Assembly (NCBI GenBank): GCA_005878955.1
Contig: VBMI01000095.1
Span: 1 to 59,319 of the forward strand
Source: Methanobacteriota archaeon
GTDB taxonomy: Archaea > Thermoplasmatota > Thermoplasmata > RBG-16-68-12
Direction of reading: 5' to 3'
DNA length: 59,319 nt
Under the pieces are notes generated by a model. It saw only the letters and a list, made by a program, of their open reading frames with translations, did not search any database and had not been told where the DNA came from. Shown here in pieces: positions 10,801-42,130 of this stretch. Both the position numbers and the translations under genes were made by a program. Each line of letters starts with the position of its first letter. Within the stretch, counting starts at the first letter, position 1.

Positions 10801-11155
10801 CGAGGATCCCCTCCGTGAGGACGGCGAGGCCCACACGGACCGCCCGGTCGATCGCCTCCTCCTTCGTCGCGGCGGGCCGCCGCGCGATCTCCTTCGCGAC
10901 GAGGATCGCGGTCTCCTCCCGGTCGTGGTCGACGCTCAGCTCTCGGATCCGACGGGCGACGCCCTCCACGTGATACTCCCGAAGGAGATTCTCGACCCGG
11001 GAAGCCAGGTCCTCCGTCTTCGGGATCTCGACCTCCAACGACGGGTCGAACCCCTTGCGTCGGGCCTCCGCCGCGACCCGGTACGCCTCGTCGGCGCCCG
11101 CCTCGAGGGTCGCGAAGTAGCGGCGAATCTCCTCGGAGGACACAGGGTACGGCAT
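7823..11155 (-). CDS. polC: DNA polymerase II (PolD) large subunit DP2
   Basis: 1110-aa ORF with conserved DP2 blocks, including ...GRPEKAAPREMSPPPHALFPIG..., Cys clusters CPSCRARWFLPRCPKCG and FRCTRCSAKYRRMPLRGKC, and the LAPHTSGG active-site region. No intein-sized insertion is present. Confidence 0.95.
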   Translation of the reverse strand: MPYPVSSEEIRRYFATLEAGADEAYRVAAEARRKGFDPSLEVEIPKTEDLASRVENLLREYHVEGVARRIRELSVDHDREETAILVAKEIARRPAATKEEAIDRAVRVGLAVLTEGILVAPLEGLAEVRVKRNPDGSNYVDLSYAGPIRSAGGTGQALSVLIADIVRRDLGVGRYQPTRQEVERFKEEIPLYKQVQHLQYTPSDEEIALIAGNCPVAINGEGTEDVEISGYRDLPRLETNRLRGGACLVIADGLCLKAPKIQKHVRRLKIDGWEFVHTYLEAKGGTVGDQGSGAVLEPSETFIENIVAGRPVLCHASRPGGLRLRYGKSRANGLASLSLHPATMIVLDEFIAVGTQIKTERPGKAGAVTPCDSIEGPLVVLETGDFVALATEAAAREARPRIKRIADLGEILVPYGEFLENNHPLVPGAFSIEWYREELRAAAGELPADWEAPSWERALELSREHRVPLHPRYNLFWHDFDVAALERLREAVLRGGRVEGTTVVVPFDATIQEPLVELGATHRLRGTELVVELHGFALLSGLGIERTPDGLRPRPPVAALNGLDFAAKNTGVPMKARGPTRIGARMGRPEKAAPREMSPPPHALFPIGSAGGMQRLVNEAVTKEEVEVEIGLRVCPSCRARWFLPRCPKCGAHTEARMRPMRQKIPLREVLDDAMARVGMAAIPAGVKAVQGMISRSKTPEPLEKGLLRAKHGLHVFKDGTTRFDMTNLVLTHFRPEEIRLSVEQARGLGYTEDVGGRPIEDPKQLIELRPQDVVIPEEAGDFLARVAQFVDELLVRVYGLPPFYNVTGRAGLIGQLVVTLAPHTSGGVLGRIVGFTRARAWFNHPYMVAARRRNADGDEDSVILLLDCLVNFSRSFLPEKRGGLMDAPLVLTTRIDPNEIDKEAHNLDVMSRYPLEFYRATERFAHPREVEGTMDLVSRRIGTVLQYEGFGSTHAVDSIEAGPLMSAYVRGSMEEKMDAQLGLALKIRAVDTNDVVSRIVVHHFLPDLIGNLKRFSLQSFRCTRCSAKYRRMPLRGKCSAILGRKECGGDLTLTVHEGSVKKYLEITKRITQEYPVSPYLLQRIALIEGAIASLFTSDKAQDLKLDDFL

Positions 11156-16300: not shown

Positions 16301-18198
16301 ACGTCCCGAACCTGCGGGAGCGGCTCGTGACGCCGGCGACGGACAGCGACCTCGACTCCGTCCCCGATTCGGTCGAGCTGAACCTCGGACCCGGGCTCGC
16401 CTTCGACTTCAACAACGATGGCACGTGGGACGCGAACACGAGCCACGACGTCGACCAAGACGGCGTGACGGACTGGCCGAACGGGCAGGACCTGTGGCTC
16501 AACACAACGATCCCCGCCTGGTACCCGGTCGCCTACGCGGGACGCATCGTCCAGCGCTACATCGGGCCGATCGCCCCCCAGAAGCTCGACGGGGTGGACA
16601 GCGCGATCGTCTACCTGGACGCGGACAACAGTACCGCGACGGGGCTCATCGTGACGACCGGACCGACGACGTACGGGCTCGACTGGGCGATCGTCGTCGT
16701 GGGCCGGCACGGGACGGTCCTCTCGAGCGAACTGTTCGGGTACGTCCGCCGCGCGGGGATCCCGTGGGACCCCGTCGCCTCGGTCCCAGCCGCGGTGGAC
16801 GCCACGCGCCTCGAGGTCGCGGCGCCGAACGCGATCCTGAACCTCTCTGCCTCCTACCGCACCCTGTACTACGCGACGGACTGGCGGCTGAGCTACGACT
16901 TCGGCGTGCCCGTGCCCCCGGGCCGCTCGCCCGCGCCGCCGCCCGGGACCCGGAGCCCCGCGGGGGACAACGTCGTGATCAACGAGGTGTCGCCCCAGCC
17001 GAACCCGGAGTGGATCGAGCTCGCGAACCCGACGTCGAGCTGGATCGGCATCTCCGGCTGGGTGCTCCAGCGGCAGAAGGGGAACAAGTGGGAGCCGATC
17101 TACACGTTCTCCGGCTCCATCGGCGCCTGGGGCTCGGGCTCCGAGTACCGCGCCATCGACCTCCCCGGGAACAGCCTCCCGAACGGGCAGACGACGATCC
17201 GGATCGTCGACTCCGCGGGCCGGGTCGTGGACGTCACATCGTACCAGCCCAGCGGGAGCGGGAACACCTGGGCCCGCTTCAAGAACCCGACGACGGGCAA
17301 GCCAATGGACAGCGACAACGACGCCTCGGACTTCTACGTGTCCGCGTTCCCGTCGAAGGGCGGGCCCAACGACCGCCACCGGCCGACGATCGCGGTCGCG
17401 AAGACCGCGAACAAGGCCACCGCCGCGCCTGGCGACCTCATCACGTACACGATCTACTATAACAACACGGACACCGGCCGCGCGAACCACGTGTGGGTGA
17501 ACGACACGCTGCCGGCGCAGGTCACGTTCCAGAGCTCGGGCGTGGCGCCGACGGGGAGCTCCGGTCAGACGTACTTCTGGCACTTCGCGAACGTCGGGCC
17601 GAACACGTTCAACTCGTTCATCGTGACCGTGCGGGTGAACGACGGGACGGGAAACGGCGTCAGCCTTGTGAACAAGGCGGTCCTGGAGTACACGGACCAG
17701 CTGAACCGCAAGATGGCGGGCTCCACGGCCTGGCGGAACGTCACCGTGTGGCGACCCGTGATTACGATCGCCAAGATTGCGGACAAGAAGGTCGCGGTGC
17801 CCGGGGACACGATCGTGTACACAATCTTCTACAACAACACGGGGTTCGCGAGCGCGCAGCACGTGTGGATCAACGACACCCTCCCCGCCGACGTCACGTA
17901 CCAGACGTCGAGCATCCCCCCGACGAGCTTCTCTGGGCAGGTCTACCGCTGGCACTTCACGAACGTCGCTCCTGGAGCCCACAGCTTCACGATCACGGTG
18001 AAGGTGAACCTGAACCCGACGTCCAGCGTGCTCGTGAACTGGGTGTACCTGAACTACACGACGCAGAACGGGTGGAAGCTCGAAGAGAGCCGGTCCTCGT
18101 GGACGACGACGATCCCGGAGTTCACCGACTTTGCGCTGGTCGCCGTCGTGCCCCTCGTGTTCCTAGGGATGCGGCGTCTCCGCCGAAGGAAGGAATAG
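13399..18198 (+). CDS. 1599-aa giant transmembrane surface protein. Cytoplasmic part: HhH, three zinc ribbons, TPR-like repeats and a TNG repeat. After a TM helix, the extracellular part has a lamin-tail-like domain, two DUF11-like repeats and a PEF-CTERM-like anchor.
   Basis: All elements are read directly from the translation:
- Zinc ribbons: CPECGSFVGKGASACPFCG, CTRCGAFLHPGKTACGMCG and CPHCGAFLGRGAARCTICG.
- TM helix: WARSVVGIASVVLIMILAPIVASMLAA.
- LTD-like segment: VVINEVSPQPNPEWIELANPTSSWIGISGWVL.
- Duplicated DUF11-like repeat: PGDxITYTIxYNNT...HVWxNDTLPAxVTxQ.
- C-terminus: IPEFTDFALVAVVPLVFLGMRRLRRRKE. Confidence 0.85.
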   Translation: MDESYLSWLRLIPGVTADLAKRVAERYPDPELLRGASPKDLAEVTGMTEEVALRVLELVHTASTSDSAWYRDEPGLYLCPECGSFVGKGASACPFCGVVFDEGEESAPEGGSPVEELLQARNGEAKICTRCGAFLHPGKTACGMCGAEYLPERLEELPAVDTSPVTETDLFLCPHCGAFLGRGAARCTICGKGVAAEEKVPGLARKDKGVSKDFLTRWQRAAEEEAPAAPAPPAPRTLEDELREYERLLEADPSLVRGWVRKGRILITLGRGREAVEAFDRAGQLDPAQDSLYRSEILEALGPTDRTPLPSRWVAEPEAARIADEMRREAATLAPSRTEEEPAPRTQPAERPQEVEPAPEEEISLEDLEADVAEAPREPETPAVTSAEAASIRRALAYYDRLLAMDSGLRVAWQTKGELLLRLGRRDDAEACFQRGADLEVAERQFGREALTGLQTRGPRTAPTNGATGTGRTNGRTNGLTNGRRGRTNGSRGRTNGMTNGSDATNGLTNGLGRVNGLMSGLARGEGRTNGLVNGNGFTNGRRGRIPTAFPRARREWARSVVGIASVVLIMILAPIVASMLAAPPQARGIVIDGSFGDWAREAVLFTDPIGDAPGNPDVDLVGYKVATSDMGLYAYARVLGTAFRGANGTADVLVALIDADGKNSTGYDAGRVGADYAVELVGWDGVVHETPLYRWNSASNRTDWFGFDYVEPVPAAASQTEVEFSLGINAPTYPNARIALATVDALGRGDATDAVVEPGEPALGVAETAIAPAVISTLGEVAVLRLDLSPAGPPVAVSFVNVTTRGSLPDAAVTLSLYRDNGDGVLGPVDALEGTAAPAGRAASFPLSLSLNAATTLFVTATLSVLPANETFGVALGNVDAAAVVAVSSADLTLSYIATAPEPTVDGAFGDWSAVPRTADPVGDVANRGGVSALANANVDLTEVGSFLGSNASFYLRVDGTMLGGIDVPNLRERLVTPATDSDLDSVPDSVELNLGPGLAFDFNNDGTWDANTSHDVDQDGVTDWPNGQDLWLNTTIPAWYPVAYAGRIVQRYIGPIAPQKLDGVDSAIVYLDADNSTATGLIVTTGPTTYGLDWAIVVVGRHGTVLSSELFGYVRRAGIPWDPVASVPAAVDATRLEVAAPNAILNLSASYRTLYYATDWRLSYDFGVPVPPGRSPAPPPGTRSPAGDNVVINEVSPQPNPEWIELANPTSSWIGISGWVLQRQKGNKWEPIYTFSGSIGAWGSGSEYRAIDLPGNSLPNGQTTIRIVDSAGRVVDVTSYQPSGSGNTWARFKNPTTGKPMDSDNDASDFYVSAFPSKGGPNDRHRPTIAVAKTANKATAAPGDLITYTIYYNNTDTGRANHVWVNDTLPAQVTFQSSGVAPTGSSGQTYFWHFANVGPNTFNSFIVTVRVNDGTGNGVSLVNKAVLEYTDQLNRKMAGSTAWRNVTVWRPVITIAKIADKKVAVPGDTIVYTIFYNNTGFASAQHVWINDTLPADVTYQTSSIPPTSFSGQVYRWHFTNVAPGAHSFTITVKVNLNPTSSVLVNWVYLNYTTQNGWKLEESRSSWTTTIPEFTDFALVAVVPLVFLGMRRLRRRKE
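14788..15020 (+). repeat. In-frame degenerate tandem repeat built on ACGAACGG (Thr-Asn-Gly), inside the giant gene
   Basis: ACGAACGG or near variants recur about a dozen times at 9-18 nt spacing. They encode TNGATGTGRTNGRTNGLTNGRRGRTNGSRGRTNGMTNGSDATNGLTNGLGRVNG...RTNGLVNGNGFTNG. Confidence 0.85.
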
Positions 18199-18290: not shown

Positions 18291-18430
18291 GGTCGCCGGC
18301 ACCAGCCCTCCTCGAAGGAGGGCAGGCTTCCCGCAGGCTCGCGCACTGCAGTACCGCAGGGAACGTGGGCGGGCTTAACTTCCGGGTTCGGGATGGGACC
18401 GGGTGTATCCCCGCCGCTTTGGCCGTCAAA
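18291..18430 (-). rRNA. rrf: 5S ribosomal RNA, not linked to 16S/23S in this window; ends approximate
   Basis: The reverse complement contains GCGGCGGGGAUACACCCGGUCCCAUCCCGAACCCGGAAGUUAAGCCCGCCCACGUUCCCUGCGGUACUGCAGUGCGCGAGCCUGCGGGAAGC. This includes the universal CCCAUCCCGAAC...GAAGUUAAGCC block and the loop E/helix IV region. The 3' boundary is uncertain because an extra hairpin precedes the helix I closing strand. Confidence 0.8.
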
Positions 18431-18460: not shown

Positions 18461-18467
18461 TATATCA
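18461..18467 (-). promoter_or_regulatory. Candidate TATA box for the 5S rRNA gene
   Basis: TATATCA on the + strand (TGATATA on the - strand) lies about 30 nt upstream of the proposed 5S 5' end. It overlaps the stop codon of the upstream ORF. Confidence 0.4.
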
Positions 18468-18956
18468 GGATTTCGGGGCGTCCGGTCTCGACCCGGAAGG
18501 GGGCGGGACCGGCGGGGTGTTCGCCTGCCGACCGGCGGGCCCCGGGTCTGGCGCTTCGCGCATCCCGAACCACTTCTCGAGGAACCCCCGCATCGCCGCA
18601 ACCCGTTCCATGTCCCCGTTCCAGCCGTCCAGCTCCCTCGCGTACCGCCCCTCGATCTCTCCGACGACGTGCTGGACCTGCCGCTCGAGGCGGTTCGACT
18701 CCCGCCCCCGGTACACCACGTAGAGGAGCGCGTGCCTCCCTCGACCGAAGGCGATGTGGTGGCGCCTCCCCCTCTCCATGCTCCTCACCTCGCCCACGCC
18801 GATCGAGTGGAACGAGTCGTCCATGAAGTTCTGGACGGCGGTGAACATCGCTGCGATGATCTCCGGGTCCCCGTCGATCCGCGATCGGGACAGCGTAACG
18901 AGCGGGGTCCCGCCCATGTACGTGAGGTACACCTGCTCGATCACCCGGCGGAGCAT
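18465..18956 (-). CDS. Hypothetical protein with a Roadblock/LC7-like (MglB-like) pattern
   Basis: This is the internal ATG of track ORF 18465-19076. MLRRVIEQVYLTYMGGTPLVTLSRSRIDGDPEIIAAMFTAVQNFMDDSFHSIGVGEVRSMERGRRHHIAFGRGRHALLYVVYRG shows an alternating beta/alpha pattern reminiscent of Roadblock domains, followed by a Pro-rich tail. The assignment is inferential. Confidence 0.5.
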   Translation of the reverse strand: MLRRVIEQVYLTYMGGTPLVTLSRSRIDGDPEIIAAMFTAVQNFMDDSFHSIGVGEVRSMERGRRHHIAFGRGRHALLYVVYRGRESNRLERQVQHVVGEIEGRYARELDGWNGDMERVAAMRGFLEKWFGMREAPDPGPAGRQANTPPVPPPSGSRPDAPKS

Positions 18957-19104
18957 CGTCTCCCTGCAGCGGAGCGGGTCGGTGCACGGCAGGAAAACCC
19001 TTCGGTGCCCGTTATCGAGGGTGATACGTAACGAGGCGCGCCGGCCGCCGCATTCCGCGGTCGCATGGGACAGCACCCATGGGAAGAACCCGTACGTTGG
19101 CCCC

Positions 19105-20031
19105 TCAGGGCCGGGGCATCGCCGTCTGCAGGAGCCCCATCAGCGGGTTCCCGACGAGGAATGCGAGGACGTATCCGACCGTCAGGGGGACCATGAACGG
19201 AATCTGGGGCGTGACCCATGCCTCCTTCAGCCCCGCCCCCCGCAGTCCGCGGGCGATCTCCCTCTGGTCCTGCCTCTTCGTCGGGAAGAAGACCAGGACG
19301 TGCTCCCCGTCGAGGATCTGGTCCATGAACCACGCGTGCCTCGGCACCCGGTCCAAGGGGACCTTGTAGCCCACGAGGGCCATCGGGAGCTTCGCGTGGC
19401 CCCGGGACGCGTTGTACGCGAGGAACGCGATCGGCGCGGCGACGAATAGGAGCGCGGCGTCCAGAAGCACCAGGAGGGAAAAGGGGAACAGGACCTGCAG
19501 CGCGTCCTGCAGCCTCGGGTCGAGGGCGATCATCGGGAGCGGCGGGAGCACCGGGTAGCCGGGGACGAAGGCCGCGATCACGATCATCGCCTTCGCGTCC
19601 GCGCCGCCCTTCAGCAGGTGGATCTCGTACATCCCGCGGAAGACGAGCATCATCACCGGAACGGTGAGGTATCGCAGGAACGTCGAGAGGCCCGCCGCGT
19701 CCGCCTGCAGGTCCACGAGCGCGTACGCCGCGGAACCGAGGGCGACCAGGTACGCGACGATCGAGCCCACGGGAAACTGCCATCCCTCCTCCGTCCGGAA
19801 CGATTGGCCGACGAGCGGGTCGAAGGCGAGGACCGCCGCGGGGACCAGGACGAGGCCGACCGCGGGGTCGACGCCCTGGGACCACAGGTCGACGGCGAAG
19901 AGCGCGATGGCCAGCGTCGCCATCACGATCCAGAGGCCGTCCTTCACCTTCCGCTCCCGCAAGTCCGAGGCCGCCGCGGCAGCGAGGAACGCCGCCCCGA
20001 CGACGAGACGCACGAGGTCGAGGGCGGACAT
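19105..20031 (-). CDS. A24-family aspartic peptidase (archaeal prepilin/preflagellin peptidase, FlaK/PibD-like)
   Basis: A polytopic membrane protein. The first catalytic Asp context is AAAASDLRERKVKDGLW and the second is LLKGGADAKAMIVIAAF (GxGD-type motif). Confidence 0.75.
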   Translation of the reverse strand: MSALDLVRLVVGAAFLAAAAASDLRERKVKDGLWIVMATLAIALFAVDLWSQGVDPAVGLVLVPAAVLAFDPLVGQSFRTEEGWQFPVGSIVAYLVALGSAAYALVDLQADAAGLSTFLRYLTVPVMMLVFRGMYEIHLLKGGADAKAMIVIAAFVPGYPVLPPLPMIALDPRLQDALQVLFPFSLLVLLDAALLFVAAPIAFLAYNASRGHAKLPMALVGYKVPLDRVPRHAWFMDQILDGEHVLVFFPTKRQDQREIARGLRGAGLKEAWVTPQIPFMVPLTVGYVLAFLVGNPLMGLLQTAMPRP

Positions 20032-20068: not shown

Positions 20069-20209
20069 GAGGGGGACCGGAGGTTCTCATCCGACGGCAG
20101 AGGGGTGAAAAGGCTTTTTAGGCGGAACCCGAATGCGCGAGCGAATGCGTTTCACCCGTGGAGGGCGCGCCCGACTTCTGACTCTCGAACCCTCGGGAGC
20201 CTGCCCGCG

Positions 20210-20755
20210 ATGATCGAGCCGCGTCGGCTGAAGGCGAAGATCTGCCTCGTCGGCGAGCACGCCGTCGGCAAGACGTCCCTGATCCGGCGGTTCGTCCTCG
20301 ACGAGTTCGACGACCGGTACATCGTCACCCTCGGCGCCAAGGTCTCGAAGAAGGAGATGGGCTTCTCGATGCCGGATGGCACGCCCGTCCACATGGACAT
20401 GACGATTTGGGACATCATGGGGTCGAAGGGCTTCCGGGAGCTCCTGCGGGAGGCGTACTTCCACGGGGCCCAGGGGATCCTCGCGACGTGCGACACGACC
20501 CGCTACGAGACCCTCGAGGACCTCGATTCCTGGGTGGAGTCCGTGTTCCGGACCGTCGGGGAGATCCCGGTCGTGTTCGCCGTGAACAAGGGGGACCTCA
20601 AGGACCAGGCCGCCTTCGGGGAGGAGCAGATCAAGCTCGCGACGGAGGGGTTCGACTCCCCCTGGTTCCACTGCTCGGCGAAGACCGGGGAGAATGTCGA
20701 GGAGTTGTTCCGGAGCCTCGCCACGACGATCGCGGGCAACACCTTCGGGAAATAG
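20210..20755 (+). CDS. Ras-superfamily (Rab/Arf-like) small GTPase
   Basis: G1 is LVGEHAVGKTS, G3 is WDIMGSKGF (DxxG without the catalytic Gln), G4 is NKGD and G5 is CSAKTG. The start was chosen at MIEPRRLKAKICLVGE. An alternative GTG at 20105 would add an Arg-rich 35-aa extension. Confidence 0.85.
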   Translation: MIEPRRLKAKICLVGEHAVGKTSLIRRFVLDEFDDRYIVTLGAKVSKKEMGFSMPDGTPVHMDMTIWDIMGSKGFRELLREAYFHGAQGILATCDTTRYETLEDLDSWVESVFRTVGEIPVVFAVNKGDLKDQAAFGEEQIKLATEGFDSPWFHCSAKTGENVEELFRSLATTIAGNTFGK

Positions 20756-24548: not shown

Positions 24549-27500
24549 CTACGGCGCGGTCTCGACGACGGCGCCTTTGAGGAACCACACGTCCGGCGTC
24601 TCCGTCCCTGTGTGGAAGAAGGCGTCTGCGACGGGCGCGGGTACCTGCTCGAGATATACGCCGAAGTCCACCCGCCAGGTCCCCGCCTCGGGCCTCCATG
24701 CGTTGAGCAACGCGGGGAGGTTCGGCTGGACGCGGACATCCGCCCGGACCCGGGACGGCACATCCTCGCCGCCCGCGTTCGCCATGAACCGAGGCAGGCC
24801 GACGGTAGCGAACGCCTCGATCCGCACGGAGAAACTGTCGAGCAGGTCTTCGGGGAAGCCCTCGTACTCCACCTCCGCGATCACGACAGGGAACGTGCGC
24901 AGGAACCGGATCAGGTTGTGGATCAGCCACTTCAGGATCTCGACCACCGCGCGGCCGTCCATCACGAAAGCGACTCGGAACCCCGCGCCCGCCGCGTCCG
25001 CCGCGCCGAACACGCCCTCGATGTAGAGGGAGAACTCGCGCAGCTCGACGAGCCCGGAGACGAACAGGTCCGCCAGGTTCATCAGCATCCGGTCCGCGAA
25101 CTCGGCGACGAAGGGGCCGATGTCTTCGGAAGACTCCGGGAACCCGCCCGTCGCGTCCAGCGTCTCGGTGAACGCCCGCGCGAGGAGCAGCGCCCAGTCC
25201 ACCGACGTCCTGAGCCGGTATCGGATCTCGACGCCCAGCTCGATTGTGAGGGTCCCGAGCGGCGTCGGTATGGGCGGGAGCTGGAACCACCACGGGGTGT
25301 ACACGCGCGCCGCGTCGATCGCGGGGACCACGAACTCGAGCGACCATCCGCCTCCGGTCGGGACCGCGCGCACGGTGACGAGCTGCCCGCCCGTGATCGC
25401 GAGGACGTCCCCTTCGAGGGTCAGCGTGACGTCATCCGCGTAATACGTGAACCCGAACTTGAGGTCCACAGGGGCGTTCCGGACCGTGATCGGCTTCCTT
25501 CGGTCGAAGCCCTTGAGGACGAGCACCGCGTAGAACTCGACATCGTCCTTCCACCCCGTGAGCTTCACGCTTGCGGGCGGGGGGCCGGGACCCACGGTCA
25601 GGTTCAGTCCGAGCGTGTCGAACGAGACGTTTCCGTTCCGCGCCTCGTCGACGAGGATCTCGACCACCGGGGCCAGGGGGCCTAATTGGCGGAGCGCATA
25701 CTCCTGGAGGGCGTCCACCGTGACCCGGACCGCCTCGGCGAGGGCCTTTGCGGCCTCCGAATCCATCGCCCGCCGGACCACGTCGAGCAGGATCCCGACG
25801 AACGCATGGACCTCGTCGAGGACGCGATCCACGACCGGGCCAAGAATCCGGTCCCAGAGTTCGCCGAGCAGGGCCCGGACCCGGTCCCAGAATTCCTTCG
25901 CGAAGGTGGTGGAGTCCTTGTACGCGACGCCCGCCAGGGGCCAGCCAGAATACACAGTGACGTTGAGCCGGAAGTCGATCCTCACGTCCTCCCGCGCAAC
26001 CTCCGGCAGAATGCCCTCAGGACCGAAGCGGACCCCGCGCGCGCTCATCGCATCCAAACGCACAAGGCCGAGGACGCGCACATCCCATCGGGTTTCGAAG
26101 GGGCGTTCGGACATCCCCCGGATATCCGTCCAATGGACGTTCGGCGAATTCCGGGACCTCGGCACCGTCGACGGGTCCCTCAGGTCCACCCACAAATCGC
26201 CGGGCTCGAGGGACGCCGGGTCCCACGCGGCGGGGTCCCCGCTGCGCGTCATCCGGAGGAGCGCGGGGGTCTGGTGGACTGCGACCCGCTCCCTCAGGAC
26301 CGCGTTCCGGGCGTCCGCCCCGCTGCGGTTCCCGGTCCAGAACTCGAACGGGGCTTCCGGAGTGGGGACGAGGATCTTCGTATTGTGGAGGTCGTCGCCC
26401 GCCGCGAGCGCGCGTCCGAACGTGCGCAGGAGGTCGCCCGCCTGGATGAGGAACCCCGTGGCCCCGAGCACAGTGTCGAGGAGCGCCTGGTAGATCCCGC
26501 CGCCTTCCGGCGGGGTGGCCGCGTCCGTCGCGACCGCGTAGATGTGCTCCAGTCGCGCCGCGTCCCGATCGCGCACGAGTCGATAGGCGTCGGGCACCCA
26601 CGGCCCGTCTGCGTCGGCTGCAATCTCCTTCTGCAGAGACGCGAGGCCCTCGGTGTCGAGGTCCCAGAAGTCCGGGTCGAGGGGGGCGAGCCCCTCCAAG
26701 TGGATAGCGAGTCGGGACCGCGCCGTCGCCATCTCGCCCTCCCAGTCCGCGAGGACGTTGTAGCTGGCGAGCAAGAAGTCGATGAGGTGCCGCACCGCGT
26801 CCGCCTGGGCCCGCCACAGGTTCGCCACCAGCTCGCCGAGGTACGACGGGTCGCTCCGGAGCCGGGCGACCGCGGTGTCGATCGCGGTCGTGAGGGAGTC
26901 GCGGACGAATTCCAGGAGAGACTCGGAATCCTTCGGGTCGATCCTCCCGCGCAGGCTCGGGTTCGGGATCGCCCCGATCAGGTTCAGGTCCTCGGCCACA
27001 TTCGTCGCGAGGTCCGTCAGGAACTCGCGGGCGGTCGCGTGGACGGTCCTCAGGTCCTCCTTGTACAGCATCGCGTAATACGCCCCCCAGAGGTCGTCGC
27101 GACCCGCCAAGAAGTCGACGGCGTCGAACTCGATCGGAGCCGCGTGGGCGGGCACGCGAATCGACCGCACGGAGCCGTCCGCGTTCGTGGCGTTATACTC
27201 CCGGTCCGGAAGGGGCATCGTGTACGTCCCGAGGAAGGTCGCCGGTTCGGTGGCCATCCCGAACAGGTCACGCACGTAGGCGCGGACCGCCTCGGCCTCC
27301 CGCTTGCCGCCCTCCAACCAGTCGAGGAACTCGTCGACACCCTGCGCGAGGAGCTGCTCTCCCTGGAGGGCGTAGTCCGCGACCCACTCGACCCCGAAGT
27401 ACCGGAGGACCCGCAGGACGGACTGGTCGATCACCGCGGACAGGGCCTGCGCCAGGACCCGGTTCAGCCGCACGGGGTCCGCGTCGAACGCGGCGTACAG

Positions 27501-28478
27501 GGCGAACAGGTCCGCGGGGTCGGCGGTCCCGCCGCGCGCGTATGCGTCCAGGAGGCGTCCGAGCGGGCGATCGGAGACCGGCGGCGTGAGCGGTTCGCCC
27601 GCGTGGGCCCCCGCCATCTCTTCGAAGAACGCGGCGTCGAACGCCGCGACGGAGGCGGGGTCCACGTCCCGGAACCGCCGCAGCTCCTCGAGGAGGAGGG
27701 CGAGGTTCACCGCGACCTCGACGTCGCGCGGGCCGAGGACATCCGTGGTCCCGGTGTCGGGCTCGCCGAAGGCGCCCGCCGCGAACCCCTGGAGGGCCCG
27801 GAACTGCGCGGCTGTGGTCAGGACGTACCGGACGATCCGGGACAGCTCGGACTCCGAGCCGTCCGCGGCCCCGCGGACCTCCCGCGCTCCGACCTGCAGC
27901 ATGGGGAACGGGGAGGCCACCGCCACCCGGAGCGGGAGGCCCGTCGTAAGCGTCATGCCCTCGTTCGTGACGGTGTAGTTCGCAGCACCGAGCACCGCGA
28001 AGTACGGCGTGCGCGTGGTCTCCGCGAGGACGCCGGGGTTGGCAGTGGCGAGGGACTCCGTTGTCCCGTTCGCGTCCGATGCTTCAGCGGGCGGGGTGGG
28101 CACCACGTCGAGGGTCCGGAAGGGCTCGAGGACGAGGACTGCGGAAACTCGGTCGAGCCGAATCAGACACCCGCGAGCCGTGCGGGGGAACGTGGGCTCC
28201 AGCCGCTCCCGGAGCAGGCGAGCGAACTGCCGGTTGATCCCGTCCGGCGCCGGGGGCCCTTCCGCGGCGATCTGGATCGCTTCGAGCGCGAGTGCGTGGA
28301 TCTCGAGCTCGACCGCGTGGTTCGTCGCGATGGCCACGATCCGGAGGACGGCGAGCTGACGCATCTGCAGGTCCGCCTGCGCCTCCTCGCGGCCTATCGT
28401 CGCAAGGTACGCGGAACTCACACCGGCAAGGAGGAGGGCGATGACCGCCACGAGCGAGAACGGCACACGTCCCCCCAC
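24549..28478 (-). CDS. Orphan protein of about 1309 aa with a single N-terminal TM anchor; function unknown
   Basis: Track ORF 24549-29783 is coding-like only below about 28500. Above that it is antisense to tupA/tupB and reads as Arg/Pro junk. Candidate GTG starts lie at 28508, 28478 and 28466, just before PFSLVAVIALLLAGVSSAYL. The rest has consistent acidic/Leu/Ala-rich composition, and I recognise no catalytic motif. Confidence 0.75.
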   Translation of the reverse strand: MGGRVPFSLVAVIALLLAGVSSAYLATIGREEAQADLQMRQLAVLRIVAIATNHAVELEIHALALEAIQIAAEGPPAPDGINRQFARLLRERLEPTFPRTARGCLIRLDRVSAVLVLEPFRTLDVVPTPPAEASDANGTTESLATANPGVLAETTRTPYFAVLGAANYTVTNEGMTLTTGLPLRVAVASPFPMLQVGAREVRGAADGSESELSRIVRYVLTTAAQFRALQGFAAGAFGEPDTGTTDVLGPRDVEVAVNLALLLEELRRFRDVDPASVAAFDAAFFEEMAGAHAGEPLTPPVSDRPLGRLLDAYARGGTADPADLFALYAAFDADPVRLNRVLAQALSAVIDQSVLRVLRYFGVEWVADYALQGEQLLAQGVDEFLDWLEGGKREAEAVRAYVRDLFGMATEPATFLGTYTMPLPDREYNATNADGSVRSIRVPAHAAPIEFDAVDFLAGRDDLWGAYYAMLYKEDLRTVHATAREFLTDLATNVAEDLNLIGAIPNPSLRGRIDPKDSESLLEFVRDSLTTAIDTAVARLRSDPSYLGELVANLWRAQADAVRHLIDFLLASYNVLADWEGEMATARSRLAIHLEGLAPLDPDFWDLDTEGLASLQKEIAADADGPWVPDAYRLVRDRDAARLEHIYAVATDAATPPEGGGIYQALLDTVLGATGFLIQAGDLLRTFGRALAAGDDLHNTKILVPTPEAPFEFWTGNRSGADARNAVLRERVAVHQTPALLRMTRSGDPAAWDPASLEPGDLWVDLRDPSTVPRSRNSPNVHWTDIRGMSERPFETRWDVRVLGLVRLDAMSARGVRFGPEGILPEVAREDVRIDFRLNVTVYSGWPLAGVAYKDSTTFAKEFWDRVRALLGELWDRILGPVVDRVLDEVHAFVGILLDVVRRAMDSEAAKALAEAVRVTVDALQEYALRQLGPLAPVVEILVDEARNGNVSFDTLGLNLTVGPGPPPASVKLTGWKDDVEFYAVLVLKGFDRRKPITVRNAPVDLKFGFTYYADDVTLTLEGDVLAITGGQLVTVRAVPTGGGWSLEFVVPAIDAARVYTPWWFQLPPIPTPLGTLTIELGVEIRYRLRTSVDWALLLARAFTETLDATGGFPESSEDIGPFVAEFADRMLMNLADLFVSGLVELREFSLYIEGVFGAADAAGAGFRVAFVMDGRAVVEILKWLIHNLIRFLRTFPVVIAEVEYEGFPEDLLDSFSVRIEAFATVGLPRFMANAGGEDVPSRVRADVRVQPNLPALLNAWRPEAGTWRVDFGVYLEQVPAPVADAFFHTGTETPDVWFLKGAVVETAP

Positions 28479-31389: not shown

Positions 31390-31563
31390 ATGAAGGTATG
31401 GCGGCGGACTGGGCCCCGAGAGGGCCCGACGTCGAGCCATCTCGGGCTCCGCGCCGCCCAATCGGACCGCTCGCCCAACCCGCAAACTTTAATTAACACA
31501 TCGATGTAGGCGAGAGGTCGCATGGACCGCCCCACCCCCCTCGGGCCCGTAGCTCAGCTAGGT

Positions 31564-31595
31564 TGGACGGCGGAACAACGCCATCGTCCCTAGAA
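31564..31595 (+). other. tRNA intron 1 (D-loop); boundaries +/- 2 nt
   Basis: It separates D-loop AGCUAGGU from A-GAGC. The intron can pair internally (GGACG...CGUCC) and with flanking exon sequence (CUAGG/CCUAG). Confidence 0.6.
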
Positions 31596-31612
31596 AGAGC
31601 ATCCGGCTTTTA

Positions 31613-31656
31613 ACCAACCCGCCGTCGGGTCCGCCCGAACACGGGGAGGTGAAGAA
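31613..31656 (+). other. tRNA intron 2 (canonical 37/38 position); boundaries +/- 1 nt
   Basis: It lies between CUUUUA and ACCGGA of the anticodon arm. Confidence 0.7.
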
Positions 31657-31678
31657 ACCGGATGGTCCGGGGTTCGAA

Positions 31679-31711
31679 AGCGCCTTGTTGCTCCGCGACA
31701 GGGCCCGAAAA
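31679..31711 (+). other. tRNA intron 3 (T-loop, about 59/60); boundaries +/- 1 nt
   Basis: It lies between CGGGG-UUCGAA and U-CCCCG. Confidence 0.6.
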
Positions 31712-31786
31712 TCCCCGCGGGCCCGTCCGGGGACCCATGCGCCAGCACGGGAGAGCGCTCACGCAGGCCAGGGAGGAGACCCCAGG

Positions 31787-32038
31787 ATGAAATTCAACGT
31801 GCTCCAGCACAGGCTAGTCCCTGAGCACCGCCTCCTGGAGGACGACGAGGCGCAGCGGGTCCTCGCGGGGCTCCGGATCACGAGTGACCAGCTCCCGAAG
31901 ATCAAGAAGACGGACCCCGTCATCCACGTGCTCGAGCAGATCCACGGCCCCATCGAGGAGGGGCGGATCATCAAGATCACACGCATCTCCGAGACCGCCG
32001 GCATCTCGGAGGCGTACCGTCTCGTCGTCGGGAGGTAG
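31787..32038 (+). CDS. rpoH: DNA-directed RNA polymerase subunit H (Rpo5)
   Basis: MKFNVLQHRLVPEHRLLEDDEAQRVLAGLRITSDQLPKIKKTDPVIHVL... A GGAGG lies upstream of the ATG. The gene sits at the head of the rpoB-rpoA operon. Confidence 0.9.
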   Translation: MKFNVLQHRLVPEHRLLEDDEAQRVLAGLRITSDQLPKIKKTDPVIHVLEQIHGPIEEGRIIKITRISETAGISEAYRLVVGR

Positions 32039-32041
32039 ACC

Positions 32042-35000
32042 ATGCGGGAACTCGTTGAGGCGTTCTTCCGGGAGCGGTCGATCGTGAACCACCACATCGC
32101 GTCGTTCAACGACTTCCTGCCCACGATCGACAACCCGAGCTCCCGGATGCAGAAGATCGTCGACAGCATGCGGTCCTCCCCCGAGGACGACCGGCGCGGG
32201 ATCTTCAAGCTCGACGAGGACCGAACGGAGGGGGATATCATCGAGATCCGGATCGGTCGCCGTCGCGACGATCGGGGCCGCACGGACCTCGACGCGAAGC
32301 CCACGATCTCCGTCGGCACCCCCATCGTGAAGGAGGCGAACGGGGCGACGCACGCCCTCACGCCGATGGAGGCCCGGCTGCGGAACCTCAACTACACCGC
32401 CCCGATCTACCTGGACTTCACCGTCGTCGAGAACGGCATCGAGCGGGAGCCCGAGCGGGTCCACATCGGGAACCTCCCGATCATGACGAAGTCGAAGAAG
32501 TGCTCCCTCCACAAGGAGAACCTCGAGATCGAGGGCGAGCTCACGGAGTCCGAGTACCGCCAGAAGCTCATCGAGATGGGGGAGGACCCGTACGACGCGG
32601 GCGGCTACTTCATCATCGGGGGCACGGAGCGGTCCCTGATCTCCCTCGAGGACCTCGCGCCGAACCGGGTGCTCGTGGAGTACAACGAGCGGTACGGCCG
32701 GCGGGTCCCCGTCGCGAAGGTGTTCTCCCAGCGCGAGGGGTACCGCGCCCTCACCCTCGTCGAGATGAAGAAGGACGGGATGCTCATCGTCACGGTCCCG
32801 ACCGCCTCGGGCCAGATCCCGCTGATCATCCTCATGAAGGCCCTCGGGATGGAGAAGGACGAGGAGATCTACAACGCGATCGTCTCCGTCCCCGAAATGG
32901 CGAACATCGTCTACGCGAACATCGAGGAGTGCCAGAACAAGAAGCTGTACCCGCCGAACGGCATCTTCAGCCGCGAGGACGCGGTGAACTACCTCGAGAA
33001 GAAGTTCGCGACGGGCCAGGCGAAGGAGTACCGGACGAAGAAGGTCGAGTCGATCCTGGACCGCTCCCTCCTCCCGCACCTCGGCGACACCCGCGAGGAC
33101 CGGATCAAGAAGGCGGTCTTCCTCGGGCGGGTCGCGCGCTCCGTCCTCGAGCTGCATCTCGGAAAACGGCGGGAGGACGACAAGGACCACTACGCGAACA
33201 AACGGCTCAAGCTCGCGGGGGACCTCATGGAGGACCTCTTCCGGGTCGCGTTCGCGAACCTCGTGAAGGACTTGAAGTACCAGCTCGAGCGGTCGTACGC
33301 GCGGCGGAAGGAGATCAAGATCAACTCCGCGATCCGGCCCGACCTGTTGAGCCAGCGACTCCTCCACGCCCTCGCGACCGGAAACTGGGTCGGCGGCCGG
33401 GCGGGCGTGAGCCAGCTCCTCGACCGGACCTCGAACATGTCCGCGCTCTCCCATCTGCGGCGAGTGACCTCCCCGCTCACGCGCTCGCAGCCGCACTTCG
33501 AAGCCCGCGACCTCCATCCGACGCAGTGGGGGCGGCTGTGTCCGAACGAGACGCCGGAGGGCCAGAACTGCGGGCTCGTGAAGAACCTGGCCCTCGTGAT
33601 CGACGTCTCCGAGGGCTTCCCCGAGGAGGAGGTCAAGCTCCTGCTCGCGGACCTCGGCACCCGCCAGGTGAAGGGGCAGACCGCGGCGACGCGGGTCTAC
33701 GTGAACGGGGACCTCGTGGGCCTCCACGAGGACCCCGCGGGGCTCATCTCGGAGATCCGCGAGCGACGGCGGTCCGGGCTCCTGAGCCCGGAAGTGAACG
33801 TCCACTTCGACGAGAACATGTACGAGGTCCTCATCAATTGCGACGAGGGCCGGATCCGGCGCCCGCTGCTCGTCGTGAAGGGCGGCCGCCTCGTCCTCAC
33901 CCGGAAACACCTGGAGGACCTGAAGATCGGCAAGTGGCGGTTCAGCGACCTCATCCGCAACGGGGTCGTCGAGTGGATCGATGCAGAGGAGGAGGAGGAC
34001 GCGTACATCGCCCTCTACCCGTTCGAGGTCCCTGCCCGGTGCAAGGAGTGCAAGGAGCCGATCAGCCGGAGCGACGTGGAGTGGGCGAACCTCGGCGCGA
34101 CGACGGACGCCCTGGACCTCCTGTGCAAGCGATGCGGCAAGACGTTCTCCGTGAAATCCTCCCTGACGGCGGACCACACGCACTGCGAGGTGGACCCGCT
34201 CGTCATCCTCGGCGTCGCGAGCGGCCTCGTCCCATACCCGGAGCACAACTCGTCCCCGCGGGTCACGATGGGCGCGGGGATGGCGAAGCAGTCCCTCGGG
34301 CTCGCGGCGAGCAACTACCGGACCCGCCCCGACACGCGGAGCCACCTCCTCCATTACCCGCAGAAGCCGACGGTCCAGACGGAATCGATGAAGTACCTCT
34401 CCTTCAACGAGCGGCCCGCGGGCCAGAACTTCGTCGTCGCGGTGATGTCGTACCACGGGTACAACATGGAGGACGCGATCGTGATGAACAGCGCCTCGAT
34501 CGACCGCGGCCTCGGGCGGTCCACGTTCATGCGGACGTACCGCGCGGAGGAGCGCCGCTACCCGGGCGGGCAGGAGGACCACTTCGAGATCCCCTCGCCG
34601 GACGTCCGCGGAGCGCGGGCGGACCTCAGCTACGCGAACCTCACCCCGGACGACGGGCTGATCTCTCCGGAGGTCCTCGTCCTCGGGGGCGAGGTGCTGA
34701 TCGGGAAGACGAGCCCGCCCCGGTTCCTTGAGGAGGAGACGGACTTCCTGACCCCGCAGAAGCGGCGGGAGACCTCGATCACCGTCCGCCACGGGGAGTC
34801 CGGCTGGGTGGACTCCGTCATGCTCACGGAGAGCGAGAACGGCTCCAAGCTCGCGAAGGTCAAGGTCCGCGACCTCCGGACGCCGGAGCTCGGGGACAAG
34901 TTCGCCTCCCGCCACGGCCAGAAGGGCGTGATCGGTCTCATCGCCCCGCAGGAGGACCTGCCGTTCACCCCGGACGGGATCATCCCGGACCTGATCATCA

Positions 35001-35628
35001 ACCCGCACGCCATCCCGTCGCGGATGACCGTCGCGCATGTGCTCGAGCAGATCGGCGGGAAGGTCGGCGCGATGGAGGGCCGGTTCATCGACGGGACGCC
35101 GTTCAGCGGCGAGCGGGAGGAGAGCCTGCGCGCGGCCCTCGAGGCGAACGGGTTCAAGACGAACGGCAAGGAGGTCCTGTACGACGGGACGACGGGCCGC
35201 ATGATCCCCGCGGAGATCTTCGTCGGGGTCATCTACTACCAGAAGCTCCACCACATGGTCTCCGGGAAGCTCCACGTCCGCTCGCGAGGGCCCGTGCAGA
35301 TCCTCACCCGCCAGCCCACGGAGGGGCGCTCCCGCCAGGGCGGGCTCCGGTTCGGGGAGATGGAGCGGGACTGCCTGATCGGCCACGGCGCCGCCATGGT
35401 GATCAAGGACCGGCTGCTGGACGAGTCGGACGGGACGATCCAGTACGTCTGCGGGAACACGGAGTGCGGCCACTTCGCGATCAAGGACCGGAAGGGGATG
35501 CTCCGCTGCCCCGTCTGCGAGAACACGTCGAACATCTACCCGGTGCAGACGTCCTATGCGTTCAAGCTGCTCCTCGACGAGATGCTGTCGCTCGGCGTGG
35601 CCATGCGACTCCAGCTGGAGGACCTTCG

Positions 35629-35632
<4 letters not shown>
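32042..35632 (+). CDS. rpoB: DNA-directed RNA polymerase subunit B (Rpo2), unsplit
   Basis: 1196-aa ORF with all conserved B-subunit blocks, including [23 protein letters not shown] and the C-terminal Zn motif CGNTECGH...CPVCEN. Confidence 0.97.
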
Positions 35633-40195: not shown

Positions 40196-40621
40196 ATGGC
40201 CGAAGTCACGTTCACGGGCGACACCCTTCGATACGCGTCCCTCTTCCAGGACGTCACGCGGACGACGGTCGTCGATTGCCTGGACACCGAGGACCGGATT
40301 GTCTACGTCGTGCAGAAGGGGGACATCGGGCGCGCGATCGGGAAGAAGGGGGAGAACGTCGCGAAGCTCCGCCGCCTCATGAACCGGGACATCCTCGTCG
40401 TGGAGTACTCGGAGGACCCCGGGTCGTTCATCGCGAACGTGTTCCGGAACTACAAGGTGAAGAAGGTCGAGATCGAGCAGCGGGGGGACGTGACACACGC
40501 GACGGTCACCGTGGACGCCTCCATGAAGGGGAAGGCGATCGGGCGCGAGGGGAAGAACCTCCGGATCGCCCGGGACCTGATCGCGCGTCACTTCGCGATC
40601 CAGAGCGTCAGCGTCGCGTGA
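40196..40621 (+). CDS. nusA: Archaeal NusA-like transcription termination/antitermination protein (two KH domains)
   Basis: GRAIGKKGENVAKLRRL and GKAIGREGKNLRIARDL are two GxxG KH motifs. It occupies the conserved position after eL30. Confidence 0.9.
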   Translation: MAEVTFTGDTLRYASLFQDVTRTTVVDCLDTEDRIVYVVQKGDIGRAIGKKGENVAKLRRLMNRDILVVEYSEDPGSFIANVFRNYKVKKVEIEQRGDVTHATVTVDASMKGKAIGREGKNLRIARDLIARHFAIQSVSVA

Positions 40622-40740
40622 TGCCCACCGCGTGCAAGCGAAGTCTTACATAGGCCCCCCGTCTCGACAGCGGCCATAGACCCCTCCGCGGCGCACCGCG
40701 GGACGGGACCGAGGCGGTTCGGATACAGTACAAATGGACC

Positions 40741-42130
40741 GTGCTGACCGTCACGACGATCGGCGTCCTCATGGCGGGGATCGACAGCCGGATCGTGATC
40801 GTCGGCCTCCCGCAGGTCGCGGCGAACATCGGTGCGGACGCGGAGCAGGCGATCTGGATCACCCAGGCGTACGTCCTCGGGAGCACGGTCGCGCTCCTCC
40901 TGATTGGCCGGGTCTCCGACATCGTGGGTCGCGTGAAGATCTACACCGCCGGTTTCTCGGTCTTCACGGTGGGCTCGCTCCTCACGAGCCTGGCGGTGAA
41001 CCCGATGATGTTGATCGCGTTCCGGGGCCTCCAGGGCTTGGGTTCCGGGATGATGTTTACGAACAGTGCGGCAATCGTCACGGACGCGTTCCCGGACAAC
41101 GAGCTCGGCCTCGCGATCGGCGTCAATCAGGTCGCGTTTCGTGCGGGGGCGATGACCGGGCTCACGGTGAGCGGCCTCATCCTCACGTTCCTCGACTGGC
41201 GCGCTCTGTTCTACGTGAACGTCCCTATCGGGATTGCGGGGACCCTCTGGGCGCACCGGCGGCTGCGTGAGCTCGCGAAACTCGAGAAGGGCGCCCCAAT
41301 CGATTGGCTAGGGTTCGTCACGTTCACGACGTGCATCGGGAGCTTCCTCCTCGCGCTCACGAGCGCGGCGTACGGGACCGCGGAGATGACGACGGTCGTC
41401 GTGCTCCTCACGGTCTCGGCGGTCGCCCTCGTCCTGTTCTCCGCCGTGTTCATCCTGCTTCCCGCCCTGCTCACCAAGTCGGCCGGTCATCTGGTCAGCT
41501 CGGGGCTGGCCTTCAACCTGGCCGAGGGAGCGCTGCGGCTGGCCATGTTCCTCGGCTACATCGTCGCCATCGGTGATCATCCCCCTCGATATCGCCTCCG
41601 TCTTCCTCGGCCCGATCAGCGGGAAGCTCTCCGACCGGTACGGGCACCTCCCGTTCACGACGGGGGGCCTTGCCCTCACCTCGTTGGCCCTGTTCCTCCT
41701 CGCGACGACGGATTATTACACGCCGTACCCATACCTCCTTGTCTACCTCGTGCTCCTAGGGGCAGGGCTCGGCGTCTTCGCGTCGCCGAACATGAGCTCG
41801 ATCATGGGCTCCGTCCCGCCCGAGCGGCGGGGCGTCGCGTCCGGGTTCCGGGCCACGCTCTTCAACGTCGGTTTCACGATCAGCCTGAACCTCGCGATCC
41901 TCGTGACGACGTTCACGGTACCGTACGCGCTCGTGACCCAGATGATCGCCTCCCCGAACCCCGTCGCGATCTCGGTGCCGGAGCGCATCCAGTTCGCGCG
42001 CGGTCTCCAGCTCACGTACCTCGCGATGGGGGCCCTCAACACGCTGGCGATCGTCCCCTCGATGCTCCGCGGGCGGCGGGTGCGGGCGAACAGCGTCGCC
42101 GCGCCGGAGCCTGCGGCGCTGATGAAGTGA
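40741..42130 (+). pseudogene. MFS transporter (DHA2/EmrB-like, 14-TM type) disrupted mid-gene by a frameshift and a replaced segment
   Basis: The N-terminal half sits in frame 40741 (GIDSRIVIVGLPQVA..., LIGRVSDIVGRVKIY, FRGLQGLGSGMMF). The C-terminal half sits in frame 41573 (PLDIASVFLGPISGKLSDRYG...). The roughly 60 aa that normally link them are replaced by about 42 unrelated codons. Confidence 0.7.

Follow-up and report, generated by a model that had tools for sequence, protein, structure and literature searches.

Contig VBMI01000095.1 (assembly GCA_005878955.1), whose 59,319 nucleotides (nt) were analyzed in full and are called the window here, carries directly upstream of rpoH a 183-nt locus that is, in our judgment, very probably a functional and vertically inherited tRNA-Lys(UUU) gene of a high-GC soil archaeon of the Thermoplasmata, interrupted by three protein-spliced introns at positions 20/21 (D-loop), 37/38 and 59/60 (T-loop). 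Archaeal tRNA genes with several introns spliced at bulge-helix-bulge (BHB) motifs are a known type; the three-intron state is newly recorded for Thermoplasmata, where it is stably inherited in a soil clade.

Structure of the tRNA-Lys(UUU) gene

The locus (31543 to 31725, plus strand) reads GGGCCCGUAGCUCAGCUAGGU, 32 nt of intron, AGAGCAUCCGGCUUUUA, 44 nt of intron, ACCGGAUGGUCCGGGGUUCGAA, 33 nt of intron, and UCCCCGCGGGCCCG. Its parts and the downstream neighbor are as follows.

31543 to 31563, plus strand: exon 1, 21 nt, positions 1 to 20 (acceptor 5′ strand, D-stem 5′ strand and most of the D-loop)
31564 to 31595, plus strand: intron 1, 32 nt, in the D-loop at position 20/21
31596 to 31612, plus strand: exon 2, 17 nt, positions 21 to 37 (D-stem 3′ strand and anticodon-stem 5′ strand, with the anticodon UUU at 31609 to 31611)
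31613 to 31656, plus strand: intron 2, 44 nt, at the canonical position 37/38
31657 to 31678, plus strand: exon 3, 22 nt, positions 38 to 59 (anticodon-stem 3′ strand, variable loop, T-stem 5′ strand and T-loop UUCGAA)
31679 to 31711, plus strand: intron 3, 33 nt, in the T-loop at position 59/60
31712 to 31725, plus strand: exon 4, 14 nt, positions 60 to 73 (U60, T-stem 3′ strand, acceptor 3′ strand and G73)
31787 to 32041, plus strand: rpoH, followed by rpoB (32042 to 35632), the neighbor that anchors the synteny

When joined (31543-31563 + 31596-31612 + 31657-31678 + 31712-31725), the exons form a 74-nt product that ARAGORN called as tRNA-Lys(ttt), and the same call was returned for all 70 orthologous loci (the window among them) once their introns had been removed. 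An earlier sequence-only reading of this DNA had proposed the three introns in a tRNA-Lys(UUU) and stems that are entirely Watson-Crick paired after splicing; both proposals held, with the acceptor stem GGGCCCG/CGGGCCC, the D stem GCUC/GAGC, the anticodon stem UCCGG/CCGGA and the T stem CGGGG/CCCCG. The D-loop of the spliced tRNA has 9 nt, including position 17a, which places the introns at Sprinzl positions 20/21, 37/38 and 59/60. The gene ends with the discriminator G73 and does not encode CCA, the next nucleotides after 31725 being TCC. We also considered a split or permuted tRNA gene and ruled it out, the four exons being colinear inside 183 nt. The proposed position directly upstream of the rpoH operon was likewise correct: the conserved start of rpoH is the ATG at 31787 (plus strand; 83-amino-acid [aa] product, as called on related loci L081 and L082), leaving a spacer of 61 nt, and the arrangement recurs in 69 related loci. 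The identity of rpoH and rpoB was taken from the Pfam domains RNA_pol_Rpb5_C and Rpb2 in the identical genes of L081 and L082.

In its unspliced form, the gene escapes the usual tools. ARAGORN reported 0 tRNAs in the 59-kb window, and Rfam gave no tRNA match there even at E ≤ 1, a 5S rRNA being its only report. With introns allowed, ARAGORN mistook the orthologues in L018, L022, L024, L027 and L048 for tRNA-Ser, Ala, Arg or Glu genes containing a single long “intron” and missed every three-intron copy. Automated annotations of these abundant soil archaea will therefore seem to lack tRNA-Lys(UUU). A generic acceptor plus T-arm scan that allowed T-loop introns found no further disrupted tRNAs in the window or in the related loci.

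High GC eases the finding of helices, and three freely chosen deletions bring many degrees of freedom, so that the cloverleaf could in principle be a chance product of the deletions picked from a GC-rich 183-nt stretch. We regard this as having almost no likelihood. As an independent query, we took the intron-less tRNA-Lys(UUU) of another genome (L066) and aligned it, with splicing allowed, to 400-nt tiles of both strands: it scored 107 at the locus and no more than 42 in the 590 other tiles of the window (median, 25.5; standard deviation, 6.2). In addition, 50 further loci with one, two or all three of these introns share the exon structure. Each of these results refutes a chance origin. Moreover, the 183-nt precursor had a predicted folding energy of −96.6 kcal/mol compared with −72.3 ± 4.6 kcal/mol for dinucleotide shuffles (z = −5.3; 0/200 shuffles as good), and a fold constrained to contain the four cloverleaf stems and the three BHB central helices reached −90.8 kcal/mol, 5.8 above the minimum.

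Splice motifs at the three junctions

The archaeal BHB motif consists of two 3-nt bulges with a 4-bp helix between them, and cleavage occurs after the second nucleotide of each bulge. Published 3-4-3 descriptions of the motif agree with the cleavage rule applied here (PMC3239211, PMC5829648). We found a BHB motif or an accepted relaxed form (HBh′ or hBH) at each junction, with a 4-bp central helix (H) in all three, and the intron boundaries, which had been proposed only as approximate coordinates, coincide exactly with the cuts predicted by the rule. The motif of intron 3 is a strict hBHBh′: h is the T stem CGGGG/CCCCG, H pairs UUCG (31673-31676) with CGAA (31706-31709), the bulges are AAA and AAU, h′ is an 11-bp hairpin, and the 3-4-3 arrangement is visible in the unconstrained minimum-free-energy fold. 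The motif of intron 2 is near-strict, with the anticodon stem as h, an H of CUUU (31607-31610) paired with GAAG (31651-31654), a 3′ bulge AAA and a 5′ bulge UA(A) that is 2 or 3 nt long in the window copy and 3 nt long in most orthologues. The motif of intron 1 is relaxed and HBh′-like: H pairs CUAG (31558-31561) with CUAG (31590-31593), the 5′ bulge is GUU (G19 U20 U), and h′ is a 5-bp helix of GGACG (31565-31569) and CGUCC (31585-31589). Its 3′ bulge, AAA, lies opposite A14-G15 and thus forms a 2 × 3 internal loop closed by the D stem instead of a clean bulge. This offset (h = 0) is the same in 48/48 orthologous copies of the D-loop intron and is therefore a stable feature and no accident of one genome. 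Folding of the junctions, which had been suggested as a check on the introns, accordingly yielded a strict motif at 59/60, a near-strict one at 37/38 and an HBh′-like one at 20/21.

Conservation and covariation

Covariation was assessed by counting paired cells in gapless alignments of each junction and comparing the counts with those from 500 shuffles and from alignments in which the 3′ partners had been slid by 1 to 3 columns.

D-loop (20/21) junction: 48 sequences, 96.7% of cells paired, shuffled mean 80.9%
T-loop (59/60) junction: 45 sequences, 91.4% of cells paired, shuffled mean 77.9%
Anticodon (37/38) junction: 17 sequences, 91.5% of cells paired, shuffled mean 79.4%

At no junction did any shuffle (0/500) reach the observed pairing or covariation score, and sliding of the 3′ partners lowered the pairing to 27 to 72%. 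Six to eight pairs per junction were changed on both sides (8/13 in the D-loop intron). The clearest signal came from the exonic D-loop nucleotides 16 to 17a, which covary with the 3′ end of the intron (CUAG/CUAG, CCAG/CUGG, CCCG/CGGG and GUAG/CUAC). The motifs at all three junctions are thus kept by selection. In every orthologue, the predicted cuts give the standard 9-nt D-loop.

The exons are conserved far beyond their surroundings. Among the seven closest three-intron relatives that we compared with the window, the exons were identical at 72 to 74 of 74 positions (exon 1 at 21/21 in all seven), while the introns were about 50 to 100% identical, mostly 50 to 75%, and the 60-nt flanks were 57 to 78% identical. 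Changes in the stems of more distant orthologues were compensatory. These observations bear on the idea that a tRNA gene has fallen out of use here and is decaying as a pseudogene, with three insertions picked up in the process, an idea to which the blindness of standard tRNA finders and of Rfam, and the fact that the locus is known from DNA alone, lend some substance. A pseudogene would not be expected to keep perfect stems throughout, or exons that are nearly identical between genomes whose RpoB proteins are only 80 to 96% identical and whose introns and flanks diverge, or compensatory stem changes, or insertions that maintain BHB geometry with covariation. Furthermore, this is the sole tRNA-Lys(UUU) at a conserved spot upstream of rpoH, where intron-less lineages have an ordinary gene. 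We therefore consider decay very unlikely and continue to treat the locus as a functional gene.

The three introns of the window have no similarity to each other or to any other part of the 59-kb window beyond 9- to 14-nt chance words, and intron transposition was rejected for the window, no intron copies being present elsewhere in the 59 kb searched. A potential pairing of AACAA in intron 1 with UUGUU in intron 3 was judged to be due to chance because it comprises only 5 bp and its flanks are unpaired. As to RNAs hosted within the window's introns, there was no Rfam match, no complete pair of C and D boxes was seen on inspection by eye, and the interiors of the introns lack conservation. Some orthologous introns are unusually long: the T-loop intron of L019 has 77 nt (about 126 to 202), and L025 has a D-loop intron of 51 nt (9394-9444) and an anticodon intron of 67 nt (9462-9528).

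Host lineage and distribution of the introns

Relatives were collected as the 80 best matches to RpoB (32042-35629) in a one-genome-per-species GTDB set. All 80 were Thermoplasmata or Methanomassiliicoccales-related metagenome-assembled genomes (MAGs), the closest being the soil MAG contig VBML01000056.1 (isolate EA_22; 96% identity). The sequence-only reading had suggested an affinity with TACK or deep lineages; with 80/80 relatives of Thermoplasmata or Methanomassiliicoccales type, this was not borne out, and the host belongs neither to Thermoproteales nor to another TACK lineage. The same reading had called the combination of PolD and an unsplit rpoB phylogenetically informative. The gene observations were right: the PolD DP2 subunit was confirmed at 7823-11155, and rpoB is one unbroken gene in every related locus in which a contig end does not cut it. 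The phylogenetic conclusion does not follow, since this is the usual state in Thermoplasmata and carries no TACK signature, given that all RpoB relatives are of Thermoplasmata type and that rpoB is unbroken in them.

In 69 of the related loci, all of them from Thermoplasmata and none from TACK, rpoH is likewise preceded by the tRNA-Lys(UUU) gene; the window brings the number to 70. Intron-less orthologues at this place were called directly by ARAGORN. The 70 loci divide by intron state as follows.

D-loop, anticodon and T-loop introns: 13 loci, window included
D-loop and T-loop introns: 29 loci
D-loop and anticodon introns: 4 loci
D-loop intron only: 2 loci
T-loop intron only: 3 loci
No intron: 19 loci

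The intron sites are constant across all loci, and the D-loop intron is kept in 48/70. On a rough RpoB neighbor-joining tree, the loci with a 37/38 intron (the 13 three-intron loci and the 4 with D-loop and anticodon introns) form one clade that includes the window. The state with D-loop and T-loop introns is spread over Natronoplasma-like, Methanomassiliicoccus-like and large soil groups, and the intron-less state is found in basal groups including DHVE2, in a second group of Thermoplasmata MAGs and in Methanomethylophilaceae/Methanoplasma-type loci. This pattern suggests that the D-loop and T-loop introns go far back in the Thermoplasmata outside Thermoplasmatales, that the 37/38 intron was a later addition in the clade of the window and that introns were lost in several lineages. 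In L022, L046, L050, L055 and L058, one or two non-canonical introns interrupt the tRNA-Lys gene, and the few other tRNA genes seen there (Leu, Gly, Val, Ser, Leu and Gln) have no intron. On the strength of these few genes, the intron load seems to be concentrated on particular genes and not genome-wide.

Comparison with known multi-intron tRNA genes

That a multi-intron tRNA gene is unusual in this setting, as had been claimed, agrees with the literature. In a 2021 survey of 217 archaeal genomes (Table S7 of the tRNAscan-SE 2.0 paper, PMC8450103), 16/16 three-intron genes were in Thermoproteales, the only group in which they had been recorded. The 144 euryarchaeal genomes in that table, with 6,970 tRNA genes, had 25 non-canonical introns, 7 two-intron genes and 0 three-intron genes; the three Methanomassiliicoccales genomes among those surveyed had 6 non-canonical introns and one two-intron gene (PMC8450103). 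Three introns per gene is the known maximum (PMC3239211, PMC8450103), and 20/21, 37/38 and 59/60 each appear among the published intron sites, the first and the last as non-canonical ones (PMC4090602). According to reviews, Euryarchaeota with α4 or α′2 endonucleases have one intron at the canonical site (PMC4090602), and “cluster II” Euryarchaeota have α′2 enzymes only (PMC5829648). Our literature search turned up no account of multi-intron tRNAs in Methanomassiliicoccales or other Thermoplasmata, nor of the positions and distribution of the Methanomassiliicoccales introns, which is weak evidence given that our coverage of the literature was incomplete.

Four known systems resemble the gene in part. 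As summarized in PMC4090602 and PMC8450103, the Thermoproteales (Pyrobaculum, Thermofilum, Caldivirga and relatives; Sugahara 2008, Fujishima 2010) also have tRNA genes in which as many as three introns are flanked by BHB motifs and spliced by proteins; the window, in contrast, comes from a Thermoplasmata euryarchaeon and not a crenarchaeon, its tRNA-Lys introns show no sign of transposition, and the probable splicing endonuclease (EndA) of its lineage is a single two-repeat polypeptide without the Crenarchaea-specific loop instead of an (αβ)2 enzyme. Methanopyrus kandleri pre-tRNA-Glu(UUC) is likewise euryarchaeal and combines a relaxed HBh′ intron at 20b/21 in the D-loop with a canonical 37/38 intron (PMC5829648). 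The window gene adds a third, strict intron at 59/60 and belongs to another isoacceptor and another class of archaea. The M. kandleri endonuclease also lacks loops L1, L2 and L3, and its structure (5X89) is the best solved-structure match of the Thermoplasmata EndA described below; it is made of separate α and β subunits, whereas the Thermoplasmata EndA is one polypeptide with two repeats. ARMAN-2 (Micrarchaeum), another host outside TACK, has T-loop introns at 59/60, including strict hBHBh′ ones (PMC3239211), but its ε2 enzyme has three units and an ASL near the catalytic His, while the Thermoplasmata EndA has two units and no ASL-type insertion. Finally, the Methanomassiliicoccales tRNAs in Table S7 of PMC8450103 come from the same class as the window, and their introns fit the D-loop plus T-loop state of the Methanomassiliicoccus-labeled loci L020 and L023; no three-intron gene is recorded for them in that table.

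Proposed expression and splicing

Two conserved elements precede the gene.

31481 to 31496, plus strand: BRE/TATA-like (transcription factor B recognition element and TATA box) promoter element CGCAAACTTTAATTAA, an AT-rich block in the 69% GC window, about 50 nt upstream of the tRNA 5′ end
31516 to 31524, plus strand: leader motif GGTCGCATG, about 25 to 29 nt downstream of the TATA center

The promoter motif AAA(C/G)TTTAA occurs at the same distance in L001 to L004 and L009, and variants of it are present in L045 (AAACTTTATT) and L005. The core of the leader motif, GTCGCATG, is kept in L001 to L003, L009 and L045 and reads CCGCATG in L004, while the flanking bases vary. The CGCAAACTTTAATTAA block may thus work as a promoter, and GGTCGCATG is likely to mark the region of transcription start, which would give a 5′ leader of about 20 to 25 nt. 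The 61-nt spacer between the tRNA gene and rpoH has no TATA-like element; cotranscription of tRNA-Lys with the rpoH operon is therefore possible.

The following course of events is modeled on established archaeal tRNA-splicing biochemistry. Transcription would start from the BRE/TATA-type promoter about 50 nt upstream and possibly continue into the rpoH operon. Once the precursor, about 183 nt long, has folded, its four exons (21, 17, 22 and 14 nt) would be kept in place by the acceptor, D, anticodon and T stems, and each intron would lengthen its own arm into a helix-bulge-helix-bulge-helix structure. EndA would cut after the second nucleotide of each 3-nt bulge, making six cuts in total, and an RtcB-type ligase would join the exons and circularize the introns. 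RNase P and RNase Z would trim the ends, and CCA would be added.

Splicing endonucleases of related archaea

A candidate for the endonuclease was obtained from relatives. Word-indexed searches with an A. fulgidus fragment and with a six-sequence catalytic-domain profile returned mostly short fragments, including a partial Natronoplasma EndA (P0110), and an exhaustive search of 1.84 billion representative proteins with P0110 as the seed uncovered a cluster of Thermoplasmata-labeled EndAs of 340 to 380 aa with two matched repeats. Within it, a 354-aa family (P0351/P0233) is abundant in soil Thermoplasmata MAGs (at least 120 clusters with 74 to 95% identity to P0351), and its loci have 70 to 74% GC compared with 69% for the window. 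In P0351, the Pfam domains are in the order N-C-N-C in one polypeptide, and the best solved-structure matches are the M. kandleri αβ fusion enzyme (5X89) and the A. fulgidus α′2 enzyme. The C-terminal repeat (187-354) is colinear with residues 4-171 of M. jannaschii EndA and has an intact Tyr/His/Lys triad; directly ahead of the catalytic His, P0351 has two residues fewer than M. jannaschii EndA. The L1 (CSL) and L2 (ASL) insertions sit near the catalytic His and L3 near the C terminus (PMC5829648). None of the three loops is present in P0351, and its N-terminal repeat is complete. This enzyme of relatives, a single polypeptide, is not an (αβ)2 EndA with a Crenarchaea-specific loop (L1). The claim that a broad-specificity endonuclease is required was accordingly not established: two of the three motifs are strict or near-strict hBHBh′, and the EndA of relatives has no CSL- or ASL-type insertion.

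EndAs of the Thermoplasmatales type are shorter (2OHC, 289 aa; “Thermoplasmataceae” cluster P0306/P0488, 309 aa). The complete-repeat form of about 350 aa is found in non-Thermoplasmatales Thermoplasmata and the shorter form in Thermoplasmataceae. A correlation between EndA form and intron load is possible if, as labels suggest, the Thermoplasmataceae belong with the intron-less basal loci.

The D-loop intron deserves separate consideration, as its 3′ site has no flanking helix. The 37/38 and 59/60 introns could be ordinary EndA substrates while the D-loop intron is removed inefficiently, with a helper (a modification, a protein or an obligatory order of cuts) or by another activity. In keeping with this are the 3′ bulge opposite A14-G15 (h = 0) in all 48 D-loop introns, the poor cutting of the analogous M. 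kandleri 20b/21 HBh′ intron by loop-less EndAs in vitro (PMC5829648) and the lack of a CSL- or ASL-type insertion in the probable EndA of the lineage. However, the H and h′ helices of the D-loop junction covary most strongly of the three (96.7% paired), and the cuts restore a 9-nt D-loop in every orthologue, a pattern expected from selection for EndA recognition. Moreover, M. kandleri matures the equivalent tRNA in vivo even though its loop-less enzyme is slow in vitro (PMC5829648). We thus judge separate handling of the D-loop intron to be unlikely and favor removal of all three introns by EndA.

Several points weigh against a functional gene spliced in this way. The spliced tRNA-Lys and the circular introns are predicted here from sequence, and an intron-less second tRNA-Lys copy could be present elsewhere in the genome, of which 59 kb were searched. 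Neither EndA nor RtcB is encoded in the 59-kb window, and no endA was found in the window or the 80 rpoB loci (1.5 Mb) by a motif regular expression or by tblastn with the M. jannaschii, A. fulgidus and M. kandleri EndAs. Assignment of the 354-aa, two-repeat, α′2-like type to the organism of the window would follow from taxon label, habitat and GC content only. The seven EndA contigs that we looked up belonged to other soil Thermoplasmata assemblies (DASPQG01, DATJUJ01, DATJNY01, JBKQ.., JASH.. and ERZ25039471), none with a three-intron locus. Finally, the D-loop motif is relaxed, and on a comparable HBh′ intron at 20b/21 the loop-less EndAs of A. fulgidus (α′2) and M. kandleri (fusion) work inefficiently in vitro (PMC5829648).

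Other features of the window

A lone 5S rRNA gene (18310-18430, minus strand; Rfam, 74.3 bits) has no 16S or 23S gene nearby, which fits the unlinked rRNA genes of the Thermoplasmata type (PMC4153887). A Ras-family small GTPase (20105-20755, plus strand; Pfam Ras, E = 9e-30) and a 203-aa open reading frame (ORF) without a Pfam match (18465-19076, minus strand) are about 1 kb apart, with a 308-aa ORF (19105-20031, minus strand) between the two; the GTPase and the 203-aa ORF may be functionally paired. A very long ORF (24549-28466, minus strand) had no Pfam match at E ≤ 0.001; it encodes at least 1,305 aa, and up to 1,744 aa if extended to 29783, its frame and start being uncertain owing to the high GC content. 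The 1,599-aa protein encoded at 13399-18198 (plus strand) has a helix-hairpin-helix, zinc ribbons, TPR repeats, a lamin-tail domain, DUF11 repeats and a C-terminal hydrophobic segment and is probably a large surface protein. Many archaea have rps12, rps7 and elongation factor genes downstream of rpoA″, L30e and nusA. At this place in the window, 40600-41570 contains only weak short ORFs, before a transporter-like fragment at 41573-42130.

Implications

With the window and its relatives, three-intron tRNA genes now extend beyond Thermoproteales, and the series of zero, one, two and three introns at one syntenic gene provides a clean data set for the study of intron gain and loss. The gene is also a natural test of the model in which the disruption of tRNA genes coevolves with the “specific loops” of the endonuclease. 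The likely enzyme type of the lineage is one regarded as too strict to handle one of these introns, and the conserved relaxed D-loop intron (48/70 loci), together with the apparently loop-less two-repeat EndA of relatives, makes the loop-specificity model directly testable. As a tentative proposal, which we hold to be possible but the less probable outcome, the non-Thermoplasmatales radiation of Thermoplasmata may routinely splice an HBh′ D-loop intron, and in one clade three introns per tRNA, with a two-repeat, α′2-like EndA that lacks L1, L2 and L3 and has a complete structural repeat in place of the deleted repeat of Thermoplasmatales, Halobacteriales and Archaeoglobales. If this is true, broad or HBh′-tolerant specificity would have arisen by an undescribed route, and the accepted rule connecting the disruption of tRNA genes with the loop type of EndA would not hold in a major soil lineage.

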